Part shown: piece after piece, positions 14,501 through 30,402 of the stretch
Position numbering within the stretch: the stretch's first letter is position 1
Layout: each line of letters begins with the position of its first letter
IMG/VR virus record: IMGVR_UViG_3300035501_000350
Location: 55,918-119,917 of that record
DNA length: 64,000 bases
Reading direction: 5' to 3' (one strand)
Source of the DNA: a virus
Lineage: Duplodnaviria; Caudoviricetes
Position numbers and translations under genes: made by a program
The notes under the pieces: model-generated
Database searches by the model: none
What the model was told of the DNA's origin: nothing
What the model saw: only the letters and a program-made list of their open reading frames with translations

Positions 14501-15840
14501 ATATGAATAGACGGAATGTAAATAGAATTGCTATTATCAATGAGATAGTAAGAGATTTCTGGGTTACATCCGGATATGATTATAATACTCAACCATTTGT
14601 GTATGACTTCATATCTGATGATCTAATTATTAAAGATGAGAATGGTAATTTGATTATTCCTGCACTGGATGCAAATCAGTATATCAATATCATTAAGAAT
14701 GATACTCATCTTATCTACTATTATCATAATCCTAATGGGAACTGGTTTGAGAATGGTAGAGTAATAAATGCTCTTACATTCTTCTGGGAGTATTCTACTA
14801 ATCTATATGGTAATAAGACTATATATGAACAGATGATGGCGTATTCTTCAGATGACGATCCATCTAATCTTACTAAGATAGATCTTGGTACCGATACTAG
14901 AGAATGGGCCTATAATACCTCTATCTCTAGTGATATGACTTTCCATTTCATTGGTAAGACTACATCTCAAATTGTAGATAGAGTAAGCCATATTAAGTTT
15001 GCTGACTGTGTTTACGTTGGAACTATAGATGAAGATCTCTTGCAAGATTATAGCAAGGATTGGACAGGTGTATCTGCATTTATTCATAATGATTCCGGAG
15101 GATTAGATAGAGTCATCAATAAGATAGATGTGATTACTTCTAATGAAGAATTTAAGTTTACTCCTAAGATGACTGAAAGTGTAGTCTTCTTGAACTATGA
15201 TGAATTACAAAATATGCTCTATACTTTCAAAGACCTGTGTCAGCCCTCGCCAGAAGTCACTTTAGAAGGCTGTACTATCGGAAATAACAATTATTTTGTA
15301 TATGCGTGTCCTAAGAGTTACGCCTATGATGGAGACGACTGTTTGATAGAATTTATATTCCCAGATTTAAATTCTCCAGATATAATGAATCATCTTACAG
15401 TTGGTACTACTCCTGTATATACATCTGGTATTTATAGTCTTAGTACTAATAATAGACTAGAATCTTTAGATCGTATGGAAATGATCTTGTTAGATGAGAT
15501 ATCTTATACTAATAAATATGGCCATGAAGAAACCTATTGTGTATGGAGAACTAATGGCTTCTTTACTAGATTAGATGATGATTGTAAGTTTGATATTACT
15601 ATAAGATTTAAAGATCATACTAAGTCTTATTCGTTTGATTATGACGAAACTATCAGAGCAATTGAGGTGAATGAAAACATGGATACTGAAATCATTGATA
15701 TGGATATTGACGAACTGTTTGGTTCTTCTAGCAGTGATTCTACTGTAACTCCTGTAGACGAGAATGTTACCCCTAAGCCCTCCAAGGCTAGAAGTAATAA
15801 TGTGGTTATGATTGATGATATTAAAATATTAAACACGTAA
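11527..15840 (+). CDS. large virion structural protein (1437 aa)
   Basis: Long ORF with repeated 'hFxNGxhh' beta-strand motifs typical of jumbo phage virion proteins; internal repeat. Confidence 0.65.
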   Translation: MITLEQKQKVLTALKSHTVTSVRANQKYKIPVIIDGEERLLTGIDIVDEADGYYAIIPKDGIIPRAIEHEHSYTTLKELEENNIIWGGIILNNSKDQNVYDHKSADGVEVSQRESIVTFGNKKVRFFNQKFFHYDDTWYEYKYSADEPQYTYGIIRVENMPFNPFEGKRNMKSFICSLNNLFYQRYCEPFMLFINKKFVSWNDIMVVFDCGTTYLLLYGEKYNYFDLRDAEIHMVILPFKVDYIGEESDDRFNMMYEITREYIQESMVINDDGSFTITSPGIDEIYRYRGMVYNVGAWLYQQLKYNALGKLSLQRKEKLRRFDVIKREYDLAGNIINTVYTKFNALDKDSYDTALYNQVTEGRTLFEFQDRAIFKFDSDGLLDYSSGVNTIALFDDITYFRRHYSNNTTAVVQDTHVRNILFRENFVVFRNGLFDPTCEMDISVHNVCTIDNPKKDNLDILVFYHLPIERIVTLLDKFDWDYIYEVSKNIIEKNLDVKNGVSAYVYDENGEVVNQFDQIDAIFSKSKFKFTPKMTSNVVFLNANDYERQIYLQMMAYYLDYQYTDDRLYEENYNEAMNTVMAFDPLLFSNLYHTNIDSKTYYGYEANESLLGVIDYENRKGLKIPRNKYEKHESYVLVFENGELIEEYSQMCVYPNFFFIPMDREFASQSRIEILYFNYIDNNEIGFYLTDYMVEHMQEAQSGDTKWYGTDIFNQFINPKDLKIFCKYPENIIVYNSLVKESSDIAFNVSYRDTEGDLYLIGDVVDECLNNTEDKCKLTAVSKRKFIYQRLCVENKSYRIILGSRFRYCDNPRQYMLFINGRRISEEYYYITIPKYTRPFWGMYLYTSRFVGPEDRIELFYLPEEFPNINDKLNLQITKSGYIQTRKENLEVPLDGRYYMIFANGKKIPADDIVPIDSHTIRLSKDQQTMKNIVVNRIYTDTMDEFSDYFKDESLSAYDTMTDYIINCLQLGTTELDKLFQVYEKMSDTEVDMNRRNVNRIAIINEIVRDFWVTSGYDYNTQPFVYDFISDDLIIKDENGNLIIPALDANQYINIIKNDTHLIYYYHNPNGNWFENGRVINALTFFWEYSTNLYGNKTIYEQMMAYSSDDDPSNLTKIDLGTDTREWAYNTSISSDMTFHFIGKTTSQIVDRVSHIKFADCVYVGTIDEDLLQDYSKDWTGVSAFIHNDSGGLDRVINKIDVITSNEEFKFTPKMTESVVFLNYDELQNMLYTFKDLCQPSPEVTLEGCTIGNNNYFVYACPKSYAYDGDDCLIEFIFPDLNSPDIMNHLTVGTTPVYTSGIYSLSTNNRLESLDRMEMILLDEISYTNKYGHEETYCVWRTNGFFTRLDDDCKFDITIRFKDHTKSYSFDYDETIRAIEVNENMDTEIIDMDIDELFGSSSSDSTVTPVDENVTPKPSKARSNNVVMIDDIKILNT

Positions 15841-15849
15841 CATGAATAT

Positions 15850-16062
15850 AGCAGTTGTGACATATTTATACTGCTATCCGTAGTTGGGCCGCGATTAGTT
15901 AGGTACCGATAGCCCTCACTCCAAGTGTAAGAATTTACACAAATTCCTACATGTATATGATAGTTATGATTGCACCTTAACTATCATGGGCATAAGAGTT
16001 GGTCCTCGCAGCCCCAGTATCAATCCGCCGCGTAGCCCTGTTTGGCCGCGCGGCGGGTTTCT
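15850..16062 (+). ncRNA. putative ~210 nt structured non-coding RNA
   Basis: ACA-TGAATA-TA promoter match (15840-15850); 5' stem AGCAGT/ACTGCT at +1; stems GTGTAA/TTACAC and ATGATAGTTA/TAACTATCAT; GC-rich terminal hairpin CCGCCGCG/CGCGGCGG followed by TTTC; no long ORF. Confidence 0.55.
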
Positions 16063-16096
16063 TATTATTAAAAATTAATATAACGTACATATTAAT

Positions 16097-16203
16097 GACA
16101 GGTGCGTCCCTGTCTCCTTTCTGACCGGACACTGCGTATAATTTTGTTGCTAAAGCTTTTCACAGACGTTTCCCGTATGGTTAATTCCATACGGGGAATG
16201 TTC
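16097..16203 (+). ncRNA. putative small RNA, array unit 1
   Basis: +1 G after ACA-N6-T; 5' stem GACAGG/CCTGTC; CTCCTTTC linker; terminal invariant hairpin. Confidence 0.6.
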
Positions 16204-16237
16204 TTGTATAAAAATACAATACGATATACATATTAGT

Positions 16238-16354
16238 GGTGGGTTTGGTCGCCCATCTCTTTCCTGGTTTGAGCCTTTGAACTCCTATACCAGAGGCTCA
16301 GCATTTAGGTTTCCTTAGAGAATCCCCGTATGGTTAATTCCATACGGGGATACC
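16238..16354 (+). ncRNA. putative small RNA, array unit 2
   Basis: 5' stem GGTGGG/CCCATC; TCTTTCCT linker; stem TGAGCCTTTG/CAGAGGCTCA; terminal hairpin. Confidence 0.6.
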
Positions 16355-16390
16355 TAGTGTAAAAATATACAATATGCTATACATATTAGT

Positions 16391-16500
16391 GACGGGTCTT
16401 CCCGTGTGCCCATCCCTTCCGTACGGGTTTGATGCAGCCCGATTTTCAACTTATTGGCTTGGGGATTCCCCGTATGGTTAATTCCATACGGGGATACCTC
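16391..16500 (+). ncRNA. putative small RNA, array unit 3
   Basis: 5' stem GACGGG with CCCGT or CCCATC; CCTTCC linker; stem CGGGTT/AGCCCG; terminal hairpin. Confidence 0.6.
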
Positions 16501-16538
16501 TATTGTGTAAAAATATACAACACGGTATACATATTAGT

Positions 16539-16673
16539 GATGGGATTGCTCAACTACCCATCTTTATGAATGGCCACTAGTATACTTCGGCGGTGGCACT
16601 AGTGGTTGTTTCATAGTATAGTGTCCTTAATGGGATATTCCCCGTATGGTTAATTCCATACGGGGGATGTTCC
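16539..16673 (+). ncRNA. putative small RNA, array unit 4
   Basis: 5' stem GATGGG/CCCATC; long stem ATGAA-TGGCCACTAGT/ACTAGTGGTTG-TTTCAT; terminal hairpin extended by G-U pairs. Confidence 0.6.
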
Positions 16674-16707
16674 GCGTAAGAAAATACAACACATCATACA
16701 TATTAGT

Positions 16708-16850
16708 GATGGATATAGTTACACGTGTTCATCATTCTTTCCAGTGTTGAGTTAGTAAGCCCTTGCCTGAAAACTCAGCGTTTTTACTCTTGTAGACATG
16801 TTAGACAAGGATATTCCCCGTATGGTTAATTCCATACGGGGGATGTTCTG
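16708..16850 (+). ncRNA. putative small RNA, array unit 5
   Basis: 5' stem GATGGATAT/GTGTTCATC; TTCTTTCC linker; stem GTTGAGTT/AACTCAGC; terminal hairpin extended by G-U pairs. Confidence 0.6.
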
Positions 16851-16921
16851 CTTTAAATTATAAATATATATTTATATTTACATAAAGTTAATTTATTTAC
16901 AATAATTGGAGGTTTAGAGAA

Positions 16922-17806
16922 ATGATGCTGCAGGAAGAATTTAATAAGATTACTACTGCCTATGAGAATTATATCAAGAACGGCGGGCCTAAGAGCAGTT
17001 CTGATAGAATGAACTACATTAATACTGTATTCAATAGTGTTAATATGGTAATCAAACTACTGTGTATTAGCGTTAATGGTGTTGATGTTGATTCTGCTGT
17101 GCTCACTGAGGCACAGTATAATAAGCGCAGTGCCATGGGTAATAAGCTGTTTGGCTCTCAGACAGCTAATGCAGAAGAAATTACTAAACCTTCTGAGGAT
17201 ATTACTGAAGAAGAGTCTGTTGTTATTAATTCTGTATCTGTAGAGGATATTCCCTCTGCAGAGGAACAGTCTGAAGATACTACTATTATTACTGAGGAGG
17301 ATACCGATATGCCTGCAAAGGAAACCAAGACTAAGAAAAAGACTAGTACTAAAAAGAAGGCTGTTGAAGAGCCTTCCGAGGAAACTAAGAAGACTACCAC
17401 TAAAAAGAGGTCTACCAAGAAGACTAAGAAAGAGCCTATCGAAGCAGAAGTTAAGATGAAGGAAATCGAGGATTTCGTTGCCGGTAAGACTGCTGTTGAT
17501 ATTATCGGAGAAGAGCTTACCGCATGGGGTATTTCTTCTGATTCCTTTGTTTATAAGGCTCTTGTTAGACTTCCTGAACTTACTAAGCATGCTGTTAAGT
17601 ATGCTGAGGTTGTTGATCTTATTGCTGCTGATACTGGTAAACCTAAGGGAGTTATTTCCTCTGCTTTCACTAACATGGTTAAGAAAGCAGATTTCTCTAA
17701 GACCATCTACTTACCTAACTTCCTTAAGCTTACTGAAGAAGAGCTTCGTAGCAATAGAGACTTTGTAATCGAGCAGCTTGCCGAATATTGCGAGCCTGAC
17801 GAGTAA
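16922..17806 (+). CDS. protein with acidic and Lys/Thr-rich linker and C-terminal Spo0A DNA-binding-domain-like region
   Basis: C-terminal IGEELTAWGIS..YKAL...LIAADTGKPKGVISSAFTNMVKKA...SNRDFV resembles Spo0A_C (IxxxxxExGVP..GYxYL...[23 protein letters not shown]...TNSEFI); GGAGG RBS. Confidence 0.55.
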   Translation: MMLQEEFNKITTAYENYIKNGGPKSSSDRMNYINTVFNSVNMVIKLLCISVNGVDVDSAVLTEAQYNKRSAMGNKLFGSQTANAEEITKPSEDITEEESVVINSVSVEDIPSAEEQSEDTTIITEEDTDMPAKETKTKKKTSTKKKAVEEPSEETKKTTTKKRSTKKTKKEPIEAEVKMKEIEDFVAGKTAVDIIGEELTAWGISSDSFVYKALVRLPELTKHAVKYAEVVDLIAADTGKPKGVISSAFTNMVKKADFSKTIYLPNFLKLTEEELRSNRDFVIEQLAEYCEPDE

Positions 17807-17840
17807 TTTTGCCAACTTCCTTATCCTTTTTATTCTAATA

Positions 17841-17883
17841 AGAAAATACTGGGTCAAGGCGAGAGCCTTACCCAGTATTTTCT
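17841..17883 (+). terminator. hairpin terminator
   Basis: AGAAAATACTGGGT...ACCCAGTATTTTCT inverted repeat after the ORF. Confidence 0.7.
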
Positions 17884-17928
17884 ACATTTTAATAATAGAA
17901 AAGTAATATACTTTTTCTACTATTATTA

Positions 17929-18546
17929 TTGAGAGGATGTGAATTAATAATGGGTAAACCTAGAAGAAAGTACGGTGAATCTAAAGAGGATTATATAAAG
18001 AGAGCCGCACTTGAGATGTACTCAGAAGGATACCATATTAGCGAGATCGCACCAAAACTCAATACTACGCAATTTAAGGTGTATAACGCTGTAATGGTTA
18101 GTAGTAGCAGGACTACTACAGAAGAAGAACGTGAAGAAATGATTTACTTAAGATCTAAAGGGATGCCATATAGGGACATTGCTGCTATTGTAGGTCGTAG
18201 TGAATCATGTGTACGTTTAAGAGTTAAGACTCCAGCTAAGTTTAATTCTCGTGGCGGGCATCATATGTCAGATAAAGACCTTAATAAGATGAAGGAATGG
18301 TACTCTGAGGGAAAGACCATTACCTGGATCGCTAAAAAGCTTGGAGTTAATAGAGATAATGTAATTCATAGAATCAGAAAGTCTGATTTATATGAGCCTA
18401 ATAAATCTAAGATTACTCCTCTTACTATAGCAGAGAAGCGTAAGATAGATTTAATGAAGTCTAAGCGTATGATGCTTGATGAAATGGTTGAAGAGACTGG
18501 TAGAGATCATAACCTGATCATCAAGTATATTAATAGAGGGAAGTAA
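17929..18546 (+). CDS. multi-helix-turn-helix DNA-binding protein
   Basis: Three to four HTH units (ISEIAPKLNTTQFKVY; YRDIAAIVGRSESCVR; ITWIAKKLGVNRDNVI); likely start MGKPRR. Confidence 0.75.
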   Translation: MRGCELIMGKPRRKYGESKEDYIKRAALEMYSEGYHISEIAPKLNTTQFKVYNAVMVSSSRTTTEEEREEMIYLRSKGMPYRDIAAIVGRSESCVRLRVKTPAKFNSRGGHHMSDKDLNKMKEWYSEGKTITWIAKKLGVNRDNVIHRIRKSDLYEPNKSKITPLTIAEKRKIDLMKSKRMMLDEMVEETGRDHNLIIKYINRGK

Positions 18547-18569
18547 TATACTTCCTATAAATGGTAATT

Positions 18570-19586
18570 TTAATAGATGTATTTATTATGCGCTGCCTTA
18601 ACAGCGTCATAAGATGTCTTTGCATAGATCATGGTAGTTTCAATATTAGCATGCCCAAGAAGCATTGAGATTTCATTAATGCTCATTCCATTATGCAGTG
18701 CGATAGTTGCTGTGGTGTGTCTAATAACATGGGGAGTTACTTTCTTATTTAAACCTACAGCTCTATCAGAGATAGTACCAACTATCTTTTCTATAGCCTC
18801 TTTCTTTAGAGGATTGTATGGTTTTCTTTCAGATACAAATATGAATTCTGAATCGCCATTACGCTCTTTATCAATATATGTCTCTAGAGCTACCCTAGCT
18901 CTAGCATTCAGGAAGGATATTCTATGCTTAGATCCCTTACCGAAGATATGCACTGTATTTGCCCTCCAATCAATATCTTCAAATTTTAAAATTGCTAACT
19001 CTGATACTCTACATGCTGTAGAGTATAGTGTTTCTATAATCGCATTATCCCTTGCAGATTGGCAAGCATTTCTTAATAATTCTAGCTCATATGGTGTTAG
19101 AGCTTGTCTAGGGGGAGTCTCATAATGTATTGGCTTGCATGGATACCCAGGGTTCTTTAAGATATATCCCATCTCGTGGCACCATGTAAAGAATCTAACA
19201 ATATACTCTCTGTATTTGTCTAGAGTTCTATTGCCAATATCATGGCTTAATTGATATCTAGTTAGATAATCTCTAATATCATCAGCTTCAATTTCATTTA
19301 AATCTTTTTGGCAATCTTTGAAGAATAACTCTAGAACTAATCTATACCCATAGCATGTCTCTGGAGTCAATCCTTCAGATTGTTTACATTCGATATATTT
19401 ATATACTAATTTTGGAACTCCATTATTTCCTCTGGCGAAATATTGATTAGTAGTTTTCTCATAAAAATTAAAATTAACAGCGGCTTTATCCATGGAGCTA
19501 AGAATTTTGCTAATTTGATCTCCATTTAGATTTAAGCCGCATGATGCAAAGTTAGATACAACAGCGTTTTTATAGAAATTATACAT
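18570..19586 (-). CDS. tyrosine recombinase/integrase (XerC/D-like)
   Basis: Complete catalytic set TACRVSEL (R), GKGSK (K), HVIRH (HxxR), LLGH (H), TTMIY (Y); N-terminal core-binding domain; GGAGG RBS. Confidence 0.93.
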   Translation of the reverse strand: MYNFYKNAVVSNFASCGLNLNGDQISKILSSMDKAAVNFNFYEKTTNQYFARGNNGVPKLVYKYIECKQSEGLTPETCYGYRLVLELFFKDCQKDLNEIEADDIRDYLTRYQLSHDIGNRTLDKYREYIVRFFTWCHEMGYILKNPGYPCKPIHYETPPRQALTPYELELLRNACQSARDNAIIETLYSTACRVSELAILKFEDIDWRANTVHIFGKGSKHRISFLNARARVALETYIDKERNGDSEFIFVSERKPYNPLKKEAIEKIVGTISDRAVGLNKKVTPHVIRHTTATIALHNGMSINEISMLLGHANIETTMIYAKTSYDAVKAAHNKYIY

Positions 19587-19697
19587 TAGAACCTCCATTA
19601 TGGTGTGCTAGCGTAGTTTATAATACGTTATTACTCTTTACACTAATGTATTTCTTATTGTATAATTCTACTTTAACATGTTAAAGACAGTACCAAT

Positions 19698-19721
19698 CCC
19701 AGGTGGAGCGCTCCACCTGGG
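19698..19721. terminator. palindromic hairpin terminator
   Basis: CCCAGGTGG-AGCGCT-CCACCTGGG downstream of 19770..20048; the same arms recur at 37145-37170. Confidence 0.65.
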
Positions 19722-19769
19722 ACTAATCTGGGCTATATGCTAAATTTAACATATAAATCTCATTGGGCA

Positions 19770-20048
19770 TTAAGTACCAGTACTTTCTTCATTACCAATC
19801 AAAGAAGCAACGGCTACTAGGTTATTACCTTCACCATCGTTCAGTAATGTTTCTCCATCTTCATCTAAAATGTAAAGCGAATCGATAGATAACAATTTCT
19901 CTAATCTTCTAATCTCAAGTATCAGAGCGTCTACTACTTCCTTAGTTGTGGTGTCTGAGTCATACATGACATTATCAGCGGAAGTTTGTGGGTAAATAGT
20001 CTGGACTGTATTTCCTTTGAGATTTTTTAGCTGAACTTTCTTAGCCAT
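19770..20048 (-). CDS. small virion fibre/decoration-like protein
   Basis: IYPQTSADNV motif shared with the neighbour (IYPRSSADMI), common in phage fibre proteins. Confidence 0.55.
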   Translation of the reverse strand: MAKKVQLKNLKGNTVQTIYPQTSADNVMYDSDTTTKEVVDALILEIRRLEKLLSIDSLYILDEDGETLLNDGEGNNLVAVASLIGNEESTGT

Positions 20049-20155
20049 CGGTTTGACTCACCAGCCTATTACTTATTTGACAGCATTAGGCCGGGGGAGG
20101 CAAATGCCGCCCCCAGCCGTTATGCCCGTCGGATTATAATGTTATGCAGCTAGAC

Positions 20156-21515: not shown

Positions 21516-23669
21516 CTACATAGACACTCTATCTGCAATCTCTGCTCTCTTAGCGTCGTTATATCTACTCTTACCTTTAACTTTATTGAAACCTAAATAG
21601 CCATTCATTCTCTGTACTTCAGTGATATTCTCAGACCCACACTTCGGGCATTTATGCATATTCAATTCCTCATGGCCACAATCTTCACAATATGCAAGAT
21701 CAAGATTAATACCCTCATACAATCCAAGCTTCATTGCTCTTCTTACAAGATCCTTCATGGCTTTAGTATTATAATTAATGGGGCACTTACAATACTGAAT
21801 CTTGCCACCGTTAAACAAATTCCAGAATCTATTCTCAGAATCCTGCTTCTCTATAGGAGTAATATCTTCAGTTACATGGCAATGGAAAGAGTTAGATACA
21901 TAAGCCTTATCAGATACATTTTCTATAATACCATACTTCTTTCTAAACTGCTCTACTTGAAGACCGCAGAGACTCTCTGCCGGGGTTCCATATATAGCGT
22001 ACAGGATTCCATCTTCCTTCTTATATACATTTACTTTATCGTTGATATAATGCATTACTTCAAGAGGGAATTCTCCATCTTCATAGATAGACTTACCATT
22101 ATAAAGACGATTGAGCTCATTCAACGCTATAATACCAAAACTTACAGTCATCGGAGGAAGTAGTTTAGCGATCTTATCATCAGCCCCAAGAGTGCCACCT
22201 AAGCAACCACCTTGCATAAACATCATAGGATTAGTGCTAGCCTTCTTCTCTCCAAAGAAAGCAATAGTCTTCTTATGAAGATTTCTGATCATTTCGAGAT
22301 AATAGTCAAGAACTTCATAGAAATCTCTATTCTCTTGACGAGCCTTAGCTAAGATCATCGGTAAATGTAAGCTGACAGCGCCTAAATTAAAACGACCCTC
22401 AAAGATTACGGTATCATTTTCATCCGCAGGATTCATTCCTCCACGCTCATACCATGGAGACAGAGATGCTCTACACCCCATAAGACTAAGAGGCTTACCA
22501 TACTTCTTATACATAGAGGGAATATACCCTTCACCAGACATAGACAGATAGTCAGGATACATACTCTTTTTGCTACACTCTATAGCCTCATTAAAGATAT
22601 ACTCATAGGGTTTACCAGGGCCATGTAATTCTTCATCATACAAGAACGTGAGCTTGGGGAACAACACAGTCTTTTTATAACCTGCCTTGCCCTGGCCTCC
22701 GGCTCTTACTCTAAGAATAGCAGTGTTAAGCAAGCACCCCCATCTGGATGTATTTAAACCAAAAGATACTGCAATAAATGGATAATCTCCTCTAGAGCTT
22801 CCTACAGTATTAAATCTATATTCCCAAGACTGGAACAGCTGTTCCATATCTCTATATACTTTCTTCTCTGCTTTCTTATCAGCCTTAGCAAGAATAACAT
22901 CATCAATATCAAGACCATTGTTTTCAGCATCTTCAATATACTCATTATAATACAGATCATAGCTCTTCTGAGCATATTTATCTAAGATGAAATCAACCTG
23001 GGGGATAGTGAATCCGCCATACTGTTGTGATGCTGCACTGATAGTGGTATCAGAGATTACATCTCCAGCAACGTCTAATGTTTTAGGCTCATTATACCAC
23101 TGGTTGCCCATCTCAAATCCACCATCTAATACATTCTTCATATCAAACAGACAGCAGTTCAATCCATCAAGACGATCCTTCATATCATGAATATAGATAT
23201 ATCCATCTCTAGCAGCTTGAAGCTCTTCTTTGTTTAAGAAGAACTTTTGATATAATTCCTTATTGAGCTGGCCATAGATCAATGATCTCTGTGTAGAAAC
23301 CATAGCAGAATCTGTATTAGCATTAGATACATCCCCAATATATCTAATAGCCTGGGACTTCTTATACACATTATCAAGAATATTACAGAATTCTACTTTA
23401 TAATTTCTATAATCACGATAGCTCTTGGCAATCATAGGATCAATCTCTTCAAGAGCATTCTCTGCAAATGTGTGCATGGCACTAATGGGAATCTTACCAT
23501 TATGCTCACTAGCATAATTTGCAGCCATTGCTATAACAATATTACTAATCTTTTCAATCTCATCATCAGTGTAAGTATGTAAACACCGTTCGGCAGATTT
23601 AGATACCGCACTGATTACCTTCTCAATATTGAACTCCTGTTCAGTTCCATCTTTCTTAATAACAATCAT
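21516..23669 (-). CDS. nrdD: anaerobic ribonucleoside-triphosphate reductase
   Basis: N-terminal ATP cone (VIKKDG), NCC, MGCR, TPAES, CxxC..CxxC, glycyl-radical loop RMNGYLG. Confidence 0.96.
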   Translation of the reverse strand: MIVIKKDGTEQEFNIEKVISAVSKSAERCLHTYTDDEIEKISNIVIAMAANYASEHNGKIPISAMHTFAENALEEIDPMIAKSYRDYRNYKVEFCNILDNVYKKSQAIRYIGDVSNANTDSAMVSTQRSLIYGQLNKELYQKFFLNKEELQAARDGYIYIHDMKDRLDGLNCCLFDMKNVLDGGFEMGNQWYNEPKTLDVAGDVISDTTISAASQQYGGFTIPQVDFILDKYAQKSYDLYYNEYIEDAENNGLDIDDVILAKADKKAEKKVYRDMEQLFQSWEYRFNTVGSSRGDYPFIAVSFGLNTSRWGCLLNTAILRVRAGGQGKAGYKKTVLFPKLTFLYDEELHGPGKPYEYIFNEAIECSKKSMYPDYLSMSGEGYIPSMYKKYGKPLSLMGCRASLSPWYERGGMNPADENDTVIFEGRFNLGAVSLHLPMILAKARQENRDFYEVLDYYLEMIRNLHKKTIAFFGEKKASTNPMMFMQGGCLGGTLGADDKIAKLLPPMTVSFGIIALNELNRLYNGKSIYEDGEFPLEVMHYINDKVNVYKKEDGILYAIYGTPAESLCGLQVEQFRKKYGIIENVSDKAYVSNSFHCHVTEDITPIEKQDSENRFWNLFNGGKIQYCKCPINYNTKAMKDLVRRAMKLGLYEGINLDLAYCEDCGHEELNMHKCPKCGSENITEVQRMNGYLGFNKVKGKSRYNDAKRAEIADRVSM

Positions 23670-23902: not shown

Positions 23903-25129
23903 ATGGCCACAAAGAGAAAGCCTAAGCACATTACTAAAGAGGCAGATTTAAATGATATAATTAATCTTACTCATGAAGAAGCCGCTCGTAAGGCTACAAT
24001 CATGAATTGGTTTGGGACGTTTGCAGATGCTCCTAGATTTAATACATATGATACTGTAGAGATACCCGCTGGTAAATATGGCATAGATAAGCATAAGAAC
24101 AAAAAGCCATTTACCACCACTGTAGGATTATGGGTATTTAACAAAGCATTTATAGAACCAGTATCAAATGTTTTAGGATACATTAATGAGACTGTAAATG
24201 GGGATAAGTATGATGATATTAACCAAACTTTATCATACGCTCTTCTTGAAGATAAAATTACTGTAGATCAATTAAAAGACTTTATAATGCAAACACAGAT
24301 TCTTATGGGCTGTGCTAGCGCTATATGTCCCTCACATGATATGGATATATTACTATTAACCAATCAGGCTGAGATTAAGAAGAAAGAGTTAGAGAAGAAA
24401 TATGCAGATAGAATTGCTCAAGGCGATATTGTTGCTATGAAGGCAGTAGAGGATGAGCTTACCGCATGGGCAAAGCAACAGCTTAAGGATTCAGAGTCTG
24501 CTGATATGTATAACTCTGGTGCTCGTAGTTCCTGGGGTAATAACTTCAAGAATATGTATTTAATGAGAGGCCCGCTTAAGGGCACCGATGGAAATTACAC
24601 ATATACAAGCAGCTCGTATATGTCTGGAATGAAGAAGGATGAATACTCAGCTGTAAACGACTCTGCTGTTGGAGGGCCTTATTCCAGATCTAGAAAGACT
24701 CAAATGGGAGGGTACTTGGAAAAGCAATTTACTAATGCTACACAGCATATTAAAGTATTACCGGCTGGCAGTGACTGTGGGTCTACAGGTACTATTACTA
24801 TCACCTTAACTAACAAGAATCTTAGTATGTGGCTGTACAGCTTTATAGTTGGTAATAATGGATCTTTAACTGAATTAACTATGGAGAATAAAGACAAATA
24901 CATAGGCAAAACTGTTAAATTTAGATATTCAGGATTATGTAAATCTAAAAATGGATGTATATGCGAAAAGTGTGCAGGTACCATGTATAGACGCATAGGT
25001 ATAGAGAATATCGGCCTAGGCACAATGATTATGATGAGTTCACTTAAGAATGCATCCATGAAGCGGTTCCATTCAAATACTCTTAACCTAGCTGAACTTA
25101 GTCCTGATGAGTGTTTTGGAACTCTATAA
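23903..25129 (+). CDS. phage RNA polymerase beta' subunit, C-terminal part
   Basis: SGARS, GGYL bridge-helix-like region, DCGS, C..ICEKCAG Zn site, MKRFH trigger-loop-like motif; late-type promoter suggests the virion RNAP. Confidence 0.85.
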   Translation: MATKRKPKHITKEADLNDIINLTHEEAARKATIMNWFGTFADAPRFNTYDTVEIPAGKYGIDKHKNKKPFTTTVGLWVFNKAFIEPVSNVLGYINETVNGDKYDDINQTLSYALLEDKITVDQLKDFIMQTQILMGCASAICPSHDMDILLLTNQAEIKKKELEKKYADRIAQGDIVAMKAVEDELTAWAKQQLKDSESADMYNSGARSSWGNNFKNMYLMRGPLKGTDGNYTYTSSSYMSGMKKDEYSAVNDSAVGGPYSRSRKTQMGGYLEKQFTNATQHIKVLPAGSDCGSTGTITITLTNKNLSMWLYSFIVGNNGSLTELTMENKDKYIGKTVKFRYSGLCKSKNGCICEKCAGTMYRRIGIENIGLGTMIMMSSLKNASMKRFHSNTLNLAELSPDECFGTL

Positions 25130-26490: not shown

Positions 26491-27993
26491 ATGGCAGATC
26501 AGATGTCTATTAATTTGCAATATCCGTATGATGGCAAATACGATTATTTCACTGAGATTAAAAGAATTAATCTAGACAAGCAACGTGATGAGGATATTAA
26601 ATCTGGAGTTGGTTTTCTCATTACAGAGCCCAAGGGTATTAAGAAAGATGTAAAGCTCCAGAATGGTATTTTCTCCAGTAGATATGGATCTAATTCTATT
26701 TCAGATACAGATTCATTCTCTGGGAGATATCGTTGTAAGTGCGGATTAAAGAGAGGTTCCATTAACAATGGTGAATATTGTGATGTATGTGGAACCAGAG
26801 TAACATATGTAGATGATGATGTATCTATTACTGGATACTTGAAATTGAAAGATCGGTATTGGATTATTCATCCTAACCTGTATTATACTATAGAGCAGTT
26901 CATTGGCTCTGGTAGATTACAGAGGATTATTGAACCTGACGTTCAAGTGGATTGTAATGGTAATGAGATTCCCATTATTTCCGTGAAGAAAGATGAACCC
27001 TTTAAGGGTATTGGTCTATTGGAATTTCATGAGAGATTTGATGAAATAATGAGCTTCTATCTTGCTAAGTATCCTACAAAGAAGCTCTATTATGACAACA
27101 TCATGCAAGAGAGAGAAAACGTATGGACTCATACTATTAGTATTTATTCTAGCCTGTTGCGTCCTAGCTCTCTAGATAATGGTTCTCTTAAATACGAGGA
27201 CTGTAATGACCAGTTTAATATGCTTGCTAGCCTGGTGTATAAATGTAATGATGATGCTCTTGAGATTGATAGAAAGATCAAAGAGCGTTTAAATCTGTTG
27301 TATGACATTCAGGTCTGTGTTAACACAGTATACACAAAGATCAAAGAAATCCTAGCAAAGAAGAAGGGCGATATTAGAACTGCTATTGGTGGTAGATATT
27401 GCTTTAGCTCTAGAAGCGTTATTAAACAAGATCCTACGCTGAGATCTGATGAAGTAAGATTACCATTCGCTGGTTTATGCGAGATGCTTCAACAGGTTAT
27501 CATAAACATTCTTGTACGTTCTTATAGCTTCAACTATTCTGATGCGTATAAGAGATGGTACAAAGCTCAAGTAATTGGATTTGATCAAGCAATCTATGAT
27601 ATTATTGATGGTCTTATCAAAGATAAGAATGGATTGCCTGTACTGATCAATCGTAATCCTACAATATCTTATGGAGGCATCTTAGCATGCCGCTGTATTG
27701 GTATTAATAGAGATTATACCATGTCCATCAGTCTGTTGGTGCTTAAAGCTCTTGCAGCAGATTTCGATGGTGACACACTTAATATCCTCTATCTATACAA
27801 TAAGGATTTCATTAGACTTGCAGAAAGAATAATCAATCCGAAATATATGTATATAGATAGAAACACTGGAACCTGCAATGCAGATTTCATCCACAGCAGA
27901 GATACGATTATTAATGCCAATAGTCTTAAGAGCCTCTATCACTACAGTCCTGAACAGATAGAACGTATTAGAGCTCTTCAGGCTATGGATTAA
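26491..27993 (+). CDS. phage RNA polymerase beta' subunit, N-terminal/catalytic part
   Basis: Zn finger CKCG..CDVC, SRSVI, NRNPT, catalytic ADFDGD; early-type promoter suggests the non-virion RNAP. Confidence 0.93.
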   Translation: MADQMSINLQYPYDGKYDYFTEIKRINLDKQRDEDIKSGVGFLITEPKGIKKDVKLQNGIFSSRYGSNSISDTDSFSGRYRCKCGLKRGSINNGEYCDVCGTRVTYVDDDVSITGYLKLKDRYWIIHPNLYYTIEQFIGSGRLQRIIEPDVQVDCNGNEIPIISVKKDEPFKGIGLLEFHERFDEIMSFYLAKYPTKKLYYDNIMQERENVWTHTISIYSSLLRPSSLDNGSLKYEDCNDQFNMLASLVYKCNDDALEIDRKIKERLNLLYDIQVCVNTVYTKIKEILAKKKGDIRTAIGGRYCFSSRSVIKQDPTLRSDEVRLPFAGLCEMLQQVIINILVRSYSFNYSDAYKRWYKAQVIGFDQAIYDIIDGLIKDKNGLPVLINRNPTISYGGILACRCIGINRDYTMSISLLVLKALAADFDGDTLNILYLYNKDFIRLAERIINPKYMYIDRNTGTCNADFIHSRDTIINANSLKSLYHYSPEQIERIRALQAMD

Positions 27994-29073: not shown

Positions 29074-30402
29074 TTGAAATACGGATTTGAACCTGTAGGG
29101 GATAAGCGGGGATTAAGAAAACTTAATCCTGCAGATATAAGACGTTCTAAAACTCCTAAACTTATGAGAACAAGTGTTACATTGCCATCTCAATATCAAG
29201 CATATGCCGTATGCGTTGAGTTTGCTAAATCATGGTTTCTTGAGAAGTTTAAATCTAATTACTTTAACTCTGTCTATGTAGATGGAACGCATAGCTTTGA
29301 TGAATTTAGAAAGTTCTCTACAATAGACCAACAGATGAAGAGAGCTAATCCATTACTTGCTATAGTACCAACTATAGATATGACTCACAATAGACAATGG
29401 ATTGATTCTGCTCCAGAGATTCCTCTATTACTACGTAAAACTAGTATAGAAGATTCTTTCTTTAATGATAGAGAAAGAGGTTTATATATTCAGCTTATAT
29501 TTAAGACCATATTAATGAATTTCGTGTTTAGAGTTCGTGTAGATACTAGAGCAGAAGAATTAGATATGGTTGAATATATTAAACTTCATCATAGAGCCGG
29601 ATGGACAGAGAGCAGAGAGATAGCAATAGACATCCATGTTCCTAAACAGATTATCCTCCAGGTTGCTTTTGATAATGGATTTAAGATTACAGAGAATGGA
29701 GAAATAGAAGAACCAATTAAGTTATTGGAATATCTAAATTCACATTCTTATGTGCCGTTCCTCTATAAACTTCGTTGCTCTACTGGCAATAAAGAGTTCT
29801 TTATTAGAGTACCAAATTGTATGGCTCACATCAAAGCAGAATTACCCACATTCGATGAGGGTGAACGTCAAGATATGACAGTAATGAACTATATCGTAGA
29901 GTTCCAAGTTGAAATAGAAATGACTGCTCCATATTGTTATACGTATTATTCTCAGCATGATATGCCATATATCTTAAATGCTCCCACGTATAAGAACTAT
30001 GATAAGATCGCTGTCATGGCAGCAAAGACTACTAATATTCCTGCATTGGATGATCATGGTTGGGATCATTTTACTACAACAGAATACTCTGTTGATGATG
30101 AAGATCTTGATACTTGTATTGATATTCCATTTGCTGAATTCTTTGAAGGGCATGAGCTACAGAGATTGATTAATTACAATAAACAGATTCATGTATCTCC
30201 ATTTATATTTATGAACTTCATTATGTTTAATGGTGGAGATAGAGTAGAATATGATATGGATTGGGATACTATGATCTGTCATATTAAAACTCCAATAACC
30301 GATAACAATACAGTAATAGCAATATATTGTGACCGTAAATATATCAATGAAACTATAGTCTATTTGGATGAATTAGATAAGAAAACCGCTAGGGTCGAAT
30401 GA
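29074..30402 (+). CDS. probable virion structural protein
   Basis: 442 aa ORF, TTG start with AGGAGG, late-type promoter at 29043. Confidence 0.55.
   Translation: MKYGFEPVGDKRGLRKLNPADIRRSKTPKLMRTSVTLPSQYQAYAVCVEFAKSWFLEKFKSNYFNSVYVDGTHSFDEFRKFSTIDQQMKRANPLLAIVPTIDMTHNRQWIDSAPEIPLLLRKTSIEDSFFNDRERGLYIQLIFKTILMNFVFRVRVDTRAEELDMVEYIKLHHRAGWTESREIAIDIHVPKQIILQVAFDNGFKITENGEIEEPIKLLEYLNSHSYVPFLYKLRCSTGNKEFFIRVPNCMAHIKAELPTFDEGERQDMTVMNYIVEFQVEIEMTAPYCYTYYSQHDMPYILNAPTYKNYDKIAVMAAKTTNIPALDDHGWDHFTTTEYSVDDEDLDTCIDIPFAEFFEGHELQRLINYNKQIHVSPFIFMNFIMFNGGDRVEYDMDWDTMICHIKTPITDNNTVIAIYCDRKYINETIVYLDELDKKTARVE

Follow-up and report, generated by a model that had tools for sequence, protein, structure and literature searches.

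A tandem array of candidate small-RNA genes in an uncultured gut jumbo phage

Organization of the locus

All coordinates refer to the window, the whole stretch of 64,000 nt that was analysed, which lies within a 119.9-kb record representing about 38% of the phage genome. Between a gene for a virion-protein-like product of 1437 aa and a cluster of small regulatory genes, the first of which downstream encodes 294 aa, lies a protein-free stretch of 1,081 nt composed of six tandem candidate small-RNA mini-genes, every one of them equipped with a phage-type promoter and ending in a hairpin. The array products would be non-coding RNAs. The neighbouring proteins resemble a virion protein and DNA-binding proteins, with no link to RNA found among them, and a Phage_integrase-family gene (tyrosine recombinase) is located at 18570-19598, 1.7 kb downstream of the array.

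A first-pass annotation had described five units here that share a hairpin and a promoter box, and this description is confirmed by exact copies and by shuffle expectations. The 24-mer hairpin occurs in five exact copies on the + strand (at 16172, 16325, 16469, 16641, and 16817), against 0 expected in shuffled sequence, and no further copy exists in the window or in the 119.9-kb record. The 12-nt promoter-like box is exact in units 2-5 and carries A for G in unit 1, while a longer upstream promoter motif gives 5 matches against 0.06 expected. The five units were borne out as counted, but a sixth, located upstream at 15839-16075 and referred to here as unit 0, had been missed. Successive 24-mer hairpins are spaced by 153, 144, 172, and 176 nt, and the bodies of units 1-5 measure 75, 87, 78, 102, and 109 nt, respectively. 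Overall, the array has a period of 141-176 nt, and its repeat is a composite of about 100 nt comprising terminator, spacer, promoter, and 5' hairpin; the unit boundaries are 100% identical, whereas the cores are unrelated to each other.

All features are on the + strand. The promoter of unit 0 (15839-15850) is a perfect AR9-type late motif, AACA-N6-TA, which places +1 at 15850 and overlaps the stop codon of the 1437-aa gene. Its RNA would span 15850-16075 (about 225 nt); folding predicts a 5' hairpin (15850-15875), then a long-range domain of several stems (15880-16020), and finally a GC-rich hairpin (16022-16060) with a T-run behind it. Unit 1 (16097-16204) has a variant promoter box, TACA-N6-TG with A at -2 (16086-16097; +1 at 16097). 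Its 5' hairpin (16097-16114) leads into a CU-rich tract (16115-16124) and a body with little structure, and the terminal hairpin (16166-16201) encloses the 24-mer at 16172-16195. In unit 2 (16238-16354), the promoter region (16211-16238; +1 at 16238) consists of an A-rich/TACA element with the core box 12 nt further downstream at 16227-16238, and it aligns with the sequence that holds the downstream gene's promoter in relatives; the 5' hairpin at 16238-16257 is followed by a CU tract, a predicted 11-bp stem-loop with CUCCU in its loop, and the 24-mer hairpin at 16325-16348. According to motif scans, the promoter regions of units 3, 4, and 5 lie at 16364-16391, 16512-16539, and 16681-16708, with +1 at 16391, 16539, and 16708. 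In unit 3 (16391-16498), the 5' hairpin (16391-16414) can pair in two alternative ways and is followed by a CU tract; a small stem-loop then precedes the 24-mer hairpin at 16469-16492. Unit 4 (16539-16674) begins with a 5' hairpin at 16539-16562 and continues with a long stem-loop of 18 bp; its extended terminal hairpin (16632-16673) includes three G-U pairs and the 24-mer at 16641-16664. In unit 5 (16708-16850), the 5' hairpin (16708-16733) has 9 bp, the CU tract is exposed, and a stem-loop of 8 bp precedes the extended terminal hairpin, which occupies 16808-16849 and includes the 24-mer at 16817-16840. Beyond the array, the 294-aa gene is preceded by a box of the same motif class, TACA-N6-TA (16879-16890; +1 at 16890), and its ATG at 16922 lies 32 nt past this +1.

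A coding reading of the units was also considered and dropped because the micro-ORFs present (9-31 codons), which start at or before +1, have no ribosome sites and because the conserved letters are read in differing frames.

Promoter class and the phage RNA polymerase

The late promoters of the Bacillus jumbo phage AR9 are AACA-(6N)-TA/G, with the last base serving as the start site (PMC5312081; PMC7598289). When compared with the consensus as stated there, unit 0 (AACA-N6-TA) matches fully, and units 1-5 (TACA-N6-TG) and a tRNA-Met cassette of the same phage (TACA-N6-TA) match 5 of the 6 specified letters, with T at -11; ACA, six bases, T, and then A or G as the start are shared in both spacing and letters. 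The two phages also have in common Shine-Dalgarno sites in the host, split multisubunit polymerase genes, and a tRNA with the same promoter class, the AR9 tRNA gene being late (PMC5312081; PMC7598289). They differ in the extra A-rich/TACA element 12 nt upstream and in the T that replaces A at -11 in units 1-5, the latter having been counted against an AR9-type reading. The AR9 enzyme requires uracil-containing DNA, a further point counted against such a reading here.

Within the phage itself, the motif is present in 28 of the 119 70-nt regions upstream of its own genes, compared with 13.4 ± 3.5 in shuffles (maximum 23), 15 on the antisense strand, and 6 for the reversed motif, with many copies found 14-45 nt ahead of an ATG. 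L187-L189, three relatives with only 43-50% protein identity, carry exactly the same box in front of the 294-aa gene. A scan of the array region for sigma-70 promoters returned 12 sites versus 11.6 in shuffles. The window also encodes a split RNA polymerase beta-like protein (23903-25129; PHROG RNA polymerase beta subunit family, E 3e-66). The carrier is an uncultured gut jumbo phage with its own split multisubunit RNA polymerase, and its non-virion polymerase would read (A/T)ACA-N6-T, followed by A or G at +1, in each unit. The earlier proposal of a promoter with a predicted +1 on the G is supported by the match to the AR9 late consensus, the enrichment before genes, and the conservation in relatives, and by analogy with AR9 the array units would be expected to be expressed late.

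These promoters also bear on an alternative in which the stretch is one multi-promoter precursor or leader, with transcripts from unit 0 and from internal promoters being cut into stable pieces that may feed the 294-aa gene, and with the hairpins acting as weak terminators or as sites of double-strand RNase processing or stability. Such an arrangement is considered unlikely: a full promoter box, of a type conserved before a gene in relatives, has been kept in every unit, and the 294-aa gene possesses a promoter of its own.

Terminal hairpins

Hairpins with a TTAATT loop are a recurrent feature of this phage and of three relatives, in which 58 were found, 50 of them intergenic; among these 50, 43 are co-oriented with the upstream gene and 7 are opposite. 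They share a GG-TTAATT-CC apex, sit after genes and tRNAs, have covarying stems, and are followed by 10-nt tails that average 5.7 T. The array hairpins have stems of 11-19 bp but only 1-5 T in the corresponding tails. Judged from sequence, the array hairpin is the usual terminator type of the clade with an unusually long stem. The phage's tRNA-Met gene, 45 kb from the array, is closed by the same hairpin type, likewise with a long and covarying stem, and is driven by the same promoter class; the earlier view of each unit as a self-contained cassette of promoter, RNA body, and closing hairpin is upheld by this shared frame. A consensus terminator scan additionally called the 5' hairpins of units 1 and 2 terminator-like. 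Two of these observations would suit a processed precursor, namely, the combination of long stems with poor T-tails relative to the clade average and the use of the same long hairpin by tRNA-Met, a molecule that is necessarily processed.

The inverted arms of 11 nt around a 6-bp center also invite an interpretation at the DNA level, in which the palindromes serve as tyrosine recombinase sites of an integron- or dif-like kind, or as origin or packaging repeats. The Phage_integrase-family gene downstream and the ability of direct repeats to permit gain or loss of units are in keeping with this idea, but it is very improbable, as the arms vary freely across the clade while the center and the GG/CC apex do not change, the opposite of what a recombinase site would show. 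Moreover, the hairpins are strand-specific with respect to genes and lead into T-runs, their G-U extensions function in RNA only, and the recombinase gene is not oriented to the array as an integron integrase would be. At the same position in relatives with the same recombinase neighborhood, the hairpins instead have 4-nt loops, two of them GNRA-type.

Origin of the array

The four junctions between units and the last hairpin align with the terminator-promoter joint that precedes the downstream gene in relatives. Among relatives, L187 is the closest that has sequence at this position, with about 150 nt in place of the 1,081 nt; the contigs of L188 and L189 break off 92 and 164 nt ahead of the homologous gene. 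In four further relatives of the upstream gene, the intergenic gap measures 59-193 nt, whereas a second strain of the phage differs by 4 SNPs in 7.5 kb and carries the array unchanged. Through the RNA polymerase beta-like gene, 18 jumbo-phage relatives were identified; no comparable array was found near the polymerase gene in these 18 or in three whole relatives, which contain other repeats, introns, and tRNA clusters instead, and the array bodies are carried by no relative examined. IMG/VR contained no close relatives of the flanking proteins, and a search with shorter fragments of the upstream protein returned a single distant match. On comparative sequence grounds, the array evidently arose in its own lineage by repeated copying of an ancestral terminator-spacer-promoter joint.

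This mode of origin raises the possibility that the array is a by-product of mobile terminator-promoter modules, with little-constrained filler or decayed small genes, devoid of a function of their own, between them. Such modules would resemble the promoter-early stem-loops (PeSLs) of T4-type phages, repeated promoter-plus-stem-loop cassettes that drive shuffling (PMC2839356). The junctions as copies of an ancestral joint and the absence of the array from every relative examined are both in agreement with it, as are the 40 identical nt shared by units 4 and 5 around the hairpin, which are enough for homologous exchange. Nevertheless, this explanation appears distinctly unlikely. The phage is about 91% coding, so that 1 kb of useless DNA would be unlikely to persist, and no ORFs with ribosome sites occur within the units.

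Folding of the unit RNAs

The predicted +1 G opens a hairpin of 6-9 bp in every unit. Among the six units, 5 of the 6 stem positions of this hairpin have changed on both sides with pairing kept; the covariation was counted by a script, and the hairpins cannot be aligned by MAFFT because their loops differ in length. Compensatory changes of this kind imply selection after duplication, which argues against a mere by-product of module copying, and covarying hairpins at +1 would make sense as protection of the 5' end of a primary transcript, a point that weighs against a cut precursor. A hairpin starting exactly at +1 probably shields the 5' end of each RNA.

Whole units fold at -37 to -61 kcal/mol on the + strand versus -31 to -43 kcal/mol on the - strand, the + strand being better by 4-18 kcal/mol in all five reported units. 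The proposal that G-U stem extensions work only in plus-strand RNA is confirmed by this difference. The strong z-scores of whole units stem mainly from the terminal hairpin. When the bodies of units 1-5 are compared alone with shuffled sequence, z-scores of -0.08, -2.79, -0.30, -2.73, and -1.18 are obtained, and only units 2 and 4 are therefore clearly structured, whereas in units 1, 3, and 5 folding of the body shows no advantage over shuffled sequence. The single architecture previously ascribed to the units thus applies to the two end hairpins, not to the bodies. While the lack of structure in three of the five bodies would be expected of filler between mobile modules, the strong strand-specific stems in units 2 and 4 would not. 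Similarly, the pyrimidine linker described earlier is predicted to be unpaired in units 1, 3, and 5 (probability 0.47-0.90) but paired in units 2 and 4 (0.18-0.20 unpaired). In each unit, one or more words of the CUCC, UCCU, or UUCC type have a predicted unpaired level of 74% or higher; words of this kind are frequent enough to occur by chance.

Contigs from gut RNA libraries

Pieces of the array are present in RNA libraries. Four animal-gut RNA-library runs (X1-X4), chosen with the array stretch as query, yielded contigs, and the presence of the array in such libraries is a further argument against a by-product of module shuffling. Assembled contigs give no true ends, strand, level, or timing, and RNA libraries can contain DNA. 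In all four runs, contigs start at 15861-15864, 11-14 nt past the predicted +1 of unit 0, read through the GC-rich hairpin and promoter 1, and stop at 16125-16128, 11-14 nt past the 5' hairpin of unit 1. One further contig, from X1, starts at 16403, 12 nt past the +1 of unit 3, crosses terminal hairpin 3 and promoter 4, and ends at 16687, thereby spanning units 3 and 4. There are no loose contig ends. A T>C difference at 15954 in unit 0 is shared by all four runs and by strain L184. Unit 1 beyond 16128 and units 2 and 5 lie outside the contigs of these runs, a gap that carries no information on expression, as short RNAs readily escape such libraries.

Since the contigs cross hairpins, either termination at them is leaky or transcription yields longer precursors. 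Discrete products of 105-145 nt, as expected from the first-pass annotation, are inferred, and the contigs instead show hairpin read-through. The bridging of the unit 0 hairpin into unit 1 and of hairpin 3 into unit 4 is what a common precursor would produce, but the contigs start 11-14 nt past two predicted +1 sites rather than at hairpins.

Searches for families, homologues, and targets

A search of Rfam 15 gave no match at the gathering threshold over the whole window and, for the locus, nothing relevant at E ≤ 10 or E ≤ 5; the best sub-threshold match was that of the hairpin to RsaJ (23.8 bits, threshold 100). ARAGORN detected no tRNA or tmRNA in the window. The exact 24-mer is absent from IMG/VR and JGI metagenome contigs, a promoter-plus-stem pattern returned only scattered single matches, and the conserved gene-promoter pattern returned none. 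BLAST searches with the locus gave no match to phage records or to plasmids, a best E of 0.013, confined to the hairpin, against the 18 related jumbo phages, and only short AT-rich or terminator-like matches at chance level against 401 genomes of Oscillospirales, the candidate host group (Oscillospirales/Acutalibacteraceae). Against the phage's own genome, matches of the bodies reach at most 13 nt (E ≥ 0.14). For linker seeds tested against 120 translation-start regions of the phage, duplex energies were no better than those of shuffled seeds, and the longest antisense matches at such regions are 10 nt.

These results bear on the idea that the units encode guide or decoy RNAs, in which constant handles are held by a phage or host protein while variable middles target nucleic acids or mimic host RNAs against RNA-based defence. 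The layout of a constant 5' module, a variable core, and a constant 3' hairpin is compatible with this, and the UUAAUU loop is invariant across the clade, which suggests that something reads it. There is, at best, a slim chance that this is the function: no core matches phage, plasmid, relative, or sampled Oscillospirales sequences, the 120-kb record has no Cas1, reverse transcriptase (RVT_1), or Nop domain, the neighbors resemble virion and DNA-binding proteins rather than RNA-guided enzymes, and the constant 3' hairpin is simply the terminator of the clade.

Comparison with known systems

The PeSLs of T4-type phages likewise combine a repeated terminator stem-loop with a strong promoter, are lineage-specific, and, as is probable for the array, are likely recombination substrates for adding or removing cassettes (PMC2839356). 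The PeSL promoters are early ones for host sigma-70, and the cassettes lie beside small protein genes and are dispersed over hyperplastic regions (PMC2839356), whereas the array has late-type promoters for a phage polymerase, no ORF in its cassettes, and a single tight tandem arrangement. In functional terms, the csRNAs of streptococci (PMC3091779) and LhrC1-5 of Listeria (PMC4132741) offer a model. Both consist of several small-RNA genes (about 90-150 nt) that have individual promoters and terminators, and in their RNAs an unpaired CU-rich stretch that can base-pair with Shine-Dalgarno sequences lies between the 5' and terminator stem-loops. The csRNA and LhrC siblings are near-identical, chromosomal, and host-regulated, while the middles of the array units are unrelated and their promoters are those of a phage. 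No Rfam match of the array to the csRNA or LhrC families was obtained.

The tRNA region of T4 encodes the stable small RNAs C and D, which are co-transcribed with tRNAs and cut from a precursor. The array resembles these in that its products would be stable phage non-coding RNAs that share expression signals with phage tRNAs, and it differs in having its own promoter for each unit and in lying 45 kb away from the tRNA. A tandem alternation of conserved elements and unique segments is also typical of CRISPR arrays and of phage solitary-repeat RNAs. CRISPR arrays have repeats of about 23-55 nt, spacers of similar length, and cas genes; the initial judgement that the array is not CRISPR-like is borne out by its period of 141-176 nt, its composite repeat, and the lack of Cas1 in the 120-kb record, and its unique segments are without matches in the sequences searched. 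Retron and TIGR-Tas arrays require an adjacent reverse transcriptase or Nop-domain Tas protein, neither of which was found in the record. For AR9, no small-RNA arrays were found in the searched passages of PMC5312081.

A probable battery of late small RNAs

With the sequence anatomy and the promoter and terminator classes shown, the array is most likely a lineage-specific battery of stable late small RNAs. Slightly better than even confidence is placed in the fuller reading of six independent small-RNA genes with AR9-like promoters, for which pairing of CU-rich stretches with ribosome-binding sites would be the likeliest action. Each RNA would carry, after its 5' hairpin, a CU-rich tract (in most units), a unit-specific segment, and the long-stem terminator of the clade with its GG-UUAAUU-CC apex. 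The blocking of ribosome-binding sites, as in csRNAs and LhrC, is the leading guess for how the RNAs act; by this analogy, it is proposed only tentatively, as a possibility that is still rather doubtful, that exposed CU-rich stretches may pair with purine-rich ribosome-binding regions of host or phage mRNAs. It appears quite unlikely, although conceivable, that the locus exemplifies a wider, hitherto undescribed class of jumbo-phage mini-gene arrays, in which units are minted by recombination at terminator-promoter joints and fast-diversifying cores between constant end modules would act as programmable regulators, guides, or decoys for takeover or counter-defence.

To our knowledge, the small RNAs of lytic phages have barely been explored, and none have been described for gut jumbo phages with their own RNA polymerases. 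The locus offers a set of predictions open to testing, namely, late promoters, their start sites, and a fixed-loop terminator particular to the clade, together with the first, albeit weak, transcript evidence from gut RNA libraries; it also illustrates how copying of a terminator-promoter joint can give a phage new RNA genes. If translation or defence proves to be regulated by the RNAs, host takeover by jumbo phages would gain an RNA layer; if not, the promoter and terminator rules would still help to annotate this phage clade.

Array anatomy and RNA structure

All the features that the first-pass annotation had listed for the five cassettes (units 1-5, window 16087-16850) were found in the sequence. 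Five plus-strand copies of the exact 24-mer, in which a 9-bp stem encloses TTAATT, were counted where chance predicts none, and neither the rest of the window nor that of its 119,917-bp source record holds another. Units 2-5 share an exact 12-nt box, from which unit 1 departs at a single base; for the longer motif lying upstream, five matches were obtained and 0.06 would be expected. The unit bodies are 75-109 nt long, with no detectable similarity to one another past the first ~30 nt. A sixth cassette, unit 0 (15839-16075), is headed by a perfect motif copy at 15839-15850, overlapping the preceding gene's stop codon; the unit has a hairpin at +1 and, by fold prediction, a 3' end consisting of a GC-rich hairpin and a T-run. 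ARAGORN and Rfam detected no tRNA or described RNA family at the array.

Over the six units, the +1 hairpin retains its pairing with five of six stem positions altered on both sides, and in all but one of units 1-5 a YCUUUCC-like tract follows the 5' hairpin. The proposed strand-specific G-U stem extensions agree with whole-unit folds that are 4-18 kcal/mol better on the plus strand, to which G-U pairs contribute in part. Structure is not uniform, as body-only fold z-scores for units 1-5 are -0.08, -2.79, -0.30, -2.73, and -1.18, while whole units reach -3.6 to -6.8, mainly through the terminal hairpin. The single architecture ascribed to all units therefore holds for the two end hairpins only and does not extend to the unevenly structured bodies.

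Terminal hairpin as a probable clade-specific terminator

The phage's sole tRNA, a tRNA-Met 45 kb from the array and outside the window (L182:311-386, corresponding to 26608-26685 of this phage's record, G000, minus strand), lies in a cassette of the same kind. The same late-type box precedes the tRNA by about 15 nt, and about 40 nt 3' of it stands a 17-bp hairpin that has the array's TTAATT loop and GG/CC apex and a stem covarying with that of the array. In related jumbo phages located via the polymerase gene, hairpins with a GG-TTAATT-CC apex directly follow stop codons as well as a tRNA, with freely varying, fully complementary stems and usually an adjacent T-run. Across four genomes, 50 of 58 TTAATT hairpins are intergenic, 43 in the same orientation as the upstream gene and 7 in the opposite one. 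Because such hairpins follow genes and tRNAs, are mostly co-oriented with the upstream gene, and have covarying stems, these sequence comparisons identify the 24-mer as the probable terminator type of this clade, read as RNA. Compared with those usual in the clade, the array and post-tRNA hairpins have longer stems (11-19 bp) and weaker T-tails. The 24-mer was also considered as a recombinase site and rejected, given that such sites have fixed arms and variable centres; an array of recombination sites acting at the DNA level is the least likely of all readings. In the terminators of four related phages (G001-G003 and G005; e.g., L103-L122), the GG-UUAAUU-CC apex is fixed and the remaining stem is free to vary. 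This constancy of the loop across the clade suggests that it may be read by the phage polymerase or some factor.

Predicted late-type promoters and transcript evidence

In the Bacillus jumbo phage AR9, the published late promoters have the form AACA-(6N)-TA/G and initiate at the final base; the early ones consist of an AT-rich block, six bases, and then G (PMC5312081; review PMC7598289). In the array box, TACA is followed by six bases, T, and G; under the AR9 rule, the predicted +1 is therefore the G opening the 5' hairpin, in agreement with the first-pass prediction. The motif (A/T)ACA-N6-T(A/G) is enriched upstream of this phage's genes, occurring in 28 of 119 70-nt upstream regions versus 13.4 ± 3.5 in shuffles, 15 on the antisense strand, and 6 for the backwards motif, usually 14-45 nt from the ATG. 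The copy at 16879-16890, preceding the downstream 294-aa gene, is identical in three relatives whose proteins share 43-50% identity. In units 2-4, another complete promoter-like motif of the form TACA-N6-TA stands exactly 12 nt 5' of the core box (16211-16222, 16364-16375, and 16512-16523), and the same doubled arrangement precedes the 294-aa gene in relatives L187-L189.

Parts of the array stretch are present in five gut metatranscriptome runs, four of which were compared as assembled contigs, a form of evidence that carries no depth, strand, or exact ends and may include DNA in the RNA library. One contig, found in all four runs, extends from 15861-15864 to 16125-16128; it starts 11-14 nt past the predicted unit 0 +1, crosses the GC-rich hairpin of unit 0 and promoter 1, and ends inside the CU tract, 11-14 nt past the 5' hairpin of unit 1. 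A second contig, from one run, starts at 16403, 12 nt past the unit 3 +1, runs across both terminal hairpin 3 and promoter 4, and ends 13 nt past the extended hairpin 4. That both contigs begin the same short distance past a predicted +1 supports the promoter model. None of the contigs has a loose end, and DNA assemblies extend beyond the contig ends, a weak hint that these are real RNA ends. Such read-through, together with the stop after the 5' hairpin of unit 1, fits poorly with the simple, tightly terminated products of 105-145 nt that had been expected. A processed precursor or leader RNA is one alternative, ranked below the regulatory function proposed below. All four runs and the DNA of a second strain (L184) share a T>C difference at 15954, in a predicted unpaired linker of unit 0.

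Genomic context and origin

The record comes from an uncultured jumbo phage and spans about 38% of its estimated genome; among the encoded products are a split RNA polymerase beta-like protein, an anaerobic ribonucleotide reductase, and a virion protein of the PhiKZ-vertex-like kind. Because its ribosome sites are strong GGAGG sequences and the closest cellular match of NrdD lies in Acutalibacteraceae genomes (56% identity), a Clostridia-type gut host is plausible. About 91% of the phage is coding, and the 1,081-nt array gap is the longest non-coding stretch of the record. Its neighbours encode a virion-protein-like product, a weakly Spo0A_C-like protein, a multi-HTH protein, and a tyrosine recombinase. 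The last three form a trio (16922-19598) whose order is kept in diverged relatives (L185, L187, and L188); the 294-aa protein has no Pfam match, and its atlas model weakly resembles the Spo0A C-terminal domain (TM 0.31/0.44).

The array junctions, composed of hairpin, A-rich spacer, upstream TACA element, and core box, can be aligned with the terminator-promoter joint that precedes the 294-aa gene in relatives. About 150 nt separate the two flanking genes in relative L187 versus 1,081 in this phage, and gaps beside the upstream gene measure 59-193 nt in four further relatives. No homologue of the array or its bodies was found in 18 related phages, and the array is identical in the second strain, which differs at 4 positions over 7.5 kb. 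These alignments, short gaps, and missing homologues show the array to be a recent amplification of a terminator-promoter module, specific to this lineage. That its RNAs are a by-product of this amplification also ranks below a regulatory role. Among T4-type phages, PeSL cassettes (PMC2839356) are comparable to the amplified module, which differs from them in its predicted late promoter of the phage-polymerase type and the lack of ORFs within units.

Relatives own different repeated non-coding modules, as indicated by an AT-rich array of about 95-nt repeats in G003 (115.9-116.7 kb) and a tRNA cluster in G001 (175.4-176.9 kb), where a conserved box of about 35 nt precedes several tRNAs. In addition, one intergenic region of G003 (L183, 163.7-164.7 kb) holds two copies, about 250-360 nt, of an element with sub-threshold Rfam similarity to group I introns (E 6e-6 and 2e-3). 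Outside the window, four intergenic elements of this phage that lie between divergent paralogous genes are nearly identical, measure about 115 nt, and each contain a central hairpin (G000 22712-22826, 24911-25035, 27255-27380, and 29252-29373); they look like a bidirectional control region common to a multiplied gene family. Also outside the window, the phage has about 500 nt of GC-rich non-coding sequence with strong structure (L181, G000 about 19560-20100, minus strand), which lies 5' of a roughly 300-aa ORF, includes a direct repeat of about 37 nt, and has no Rfam match at E <= 0.01.

Candidate functions and novelty

A battery of guides or decoys, as first envisaged, ranks below a regulatory role: the bodies have no matches in phage, plasmid, relative, or sampled Oscillospirales sequences, and the 119,917-bp record contains no Cas1, reverse transcriptase, or Nop domain. 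The array RNAs fall outside any described family, and a literature search found no published account of such arrays in jumbo phages. The underlying principles, namely sibling small RNAs, terminator-promoter cassettes, and AR9-type promoters, are already known. Overall, the anatomy and origin of the array are solid, and its transcript support is partial.

The predicted layout of a 5' stem-loop, an unpaired CU-rich stretch, a terminator stem-loop, and sibling genes resembles that of the csRNAs (PMC3091779) and LhrC1-5 (PMC4132741), which block Shine-Dalgarno regions in Gram-positive bacteria. The CU-rich linker is predicted to be unpaired in units 1, 3, and 5 and paired in units 2 and 4. Every unit exposes at least one CU word predicted to be unpaired, such words being common anyway, and linker pairing with the phage's own translation-start regions is no better than that of shuffled linkers; antisense matches of the array stay at chance level. 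Because of this layout and the exposed CU words, regulators that block ribosome-binding sites rank first among the candidate functions, at low confidence, and the array RNAs may act in this way.
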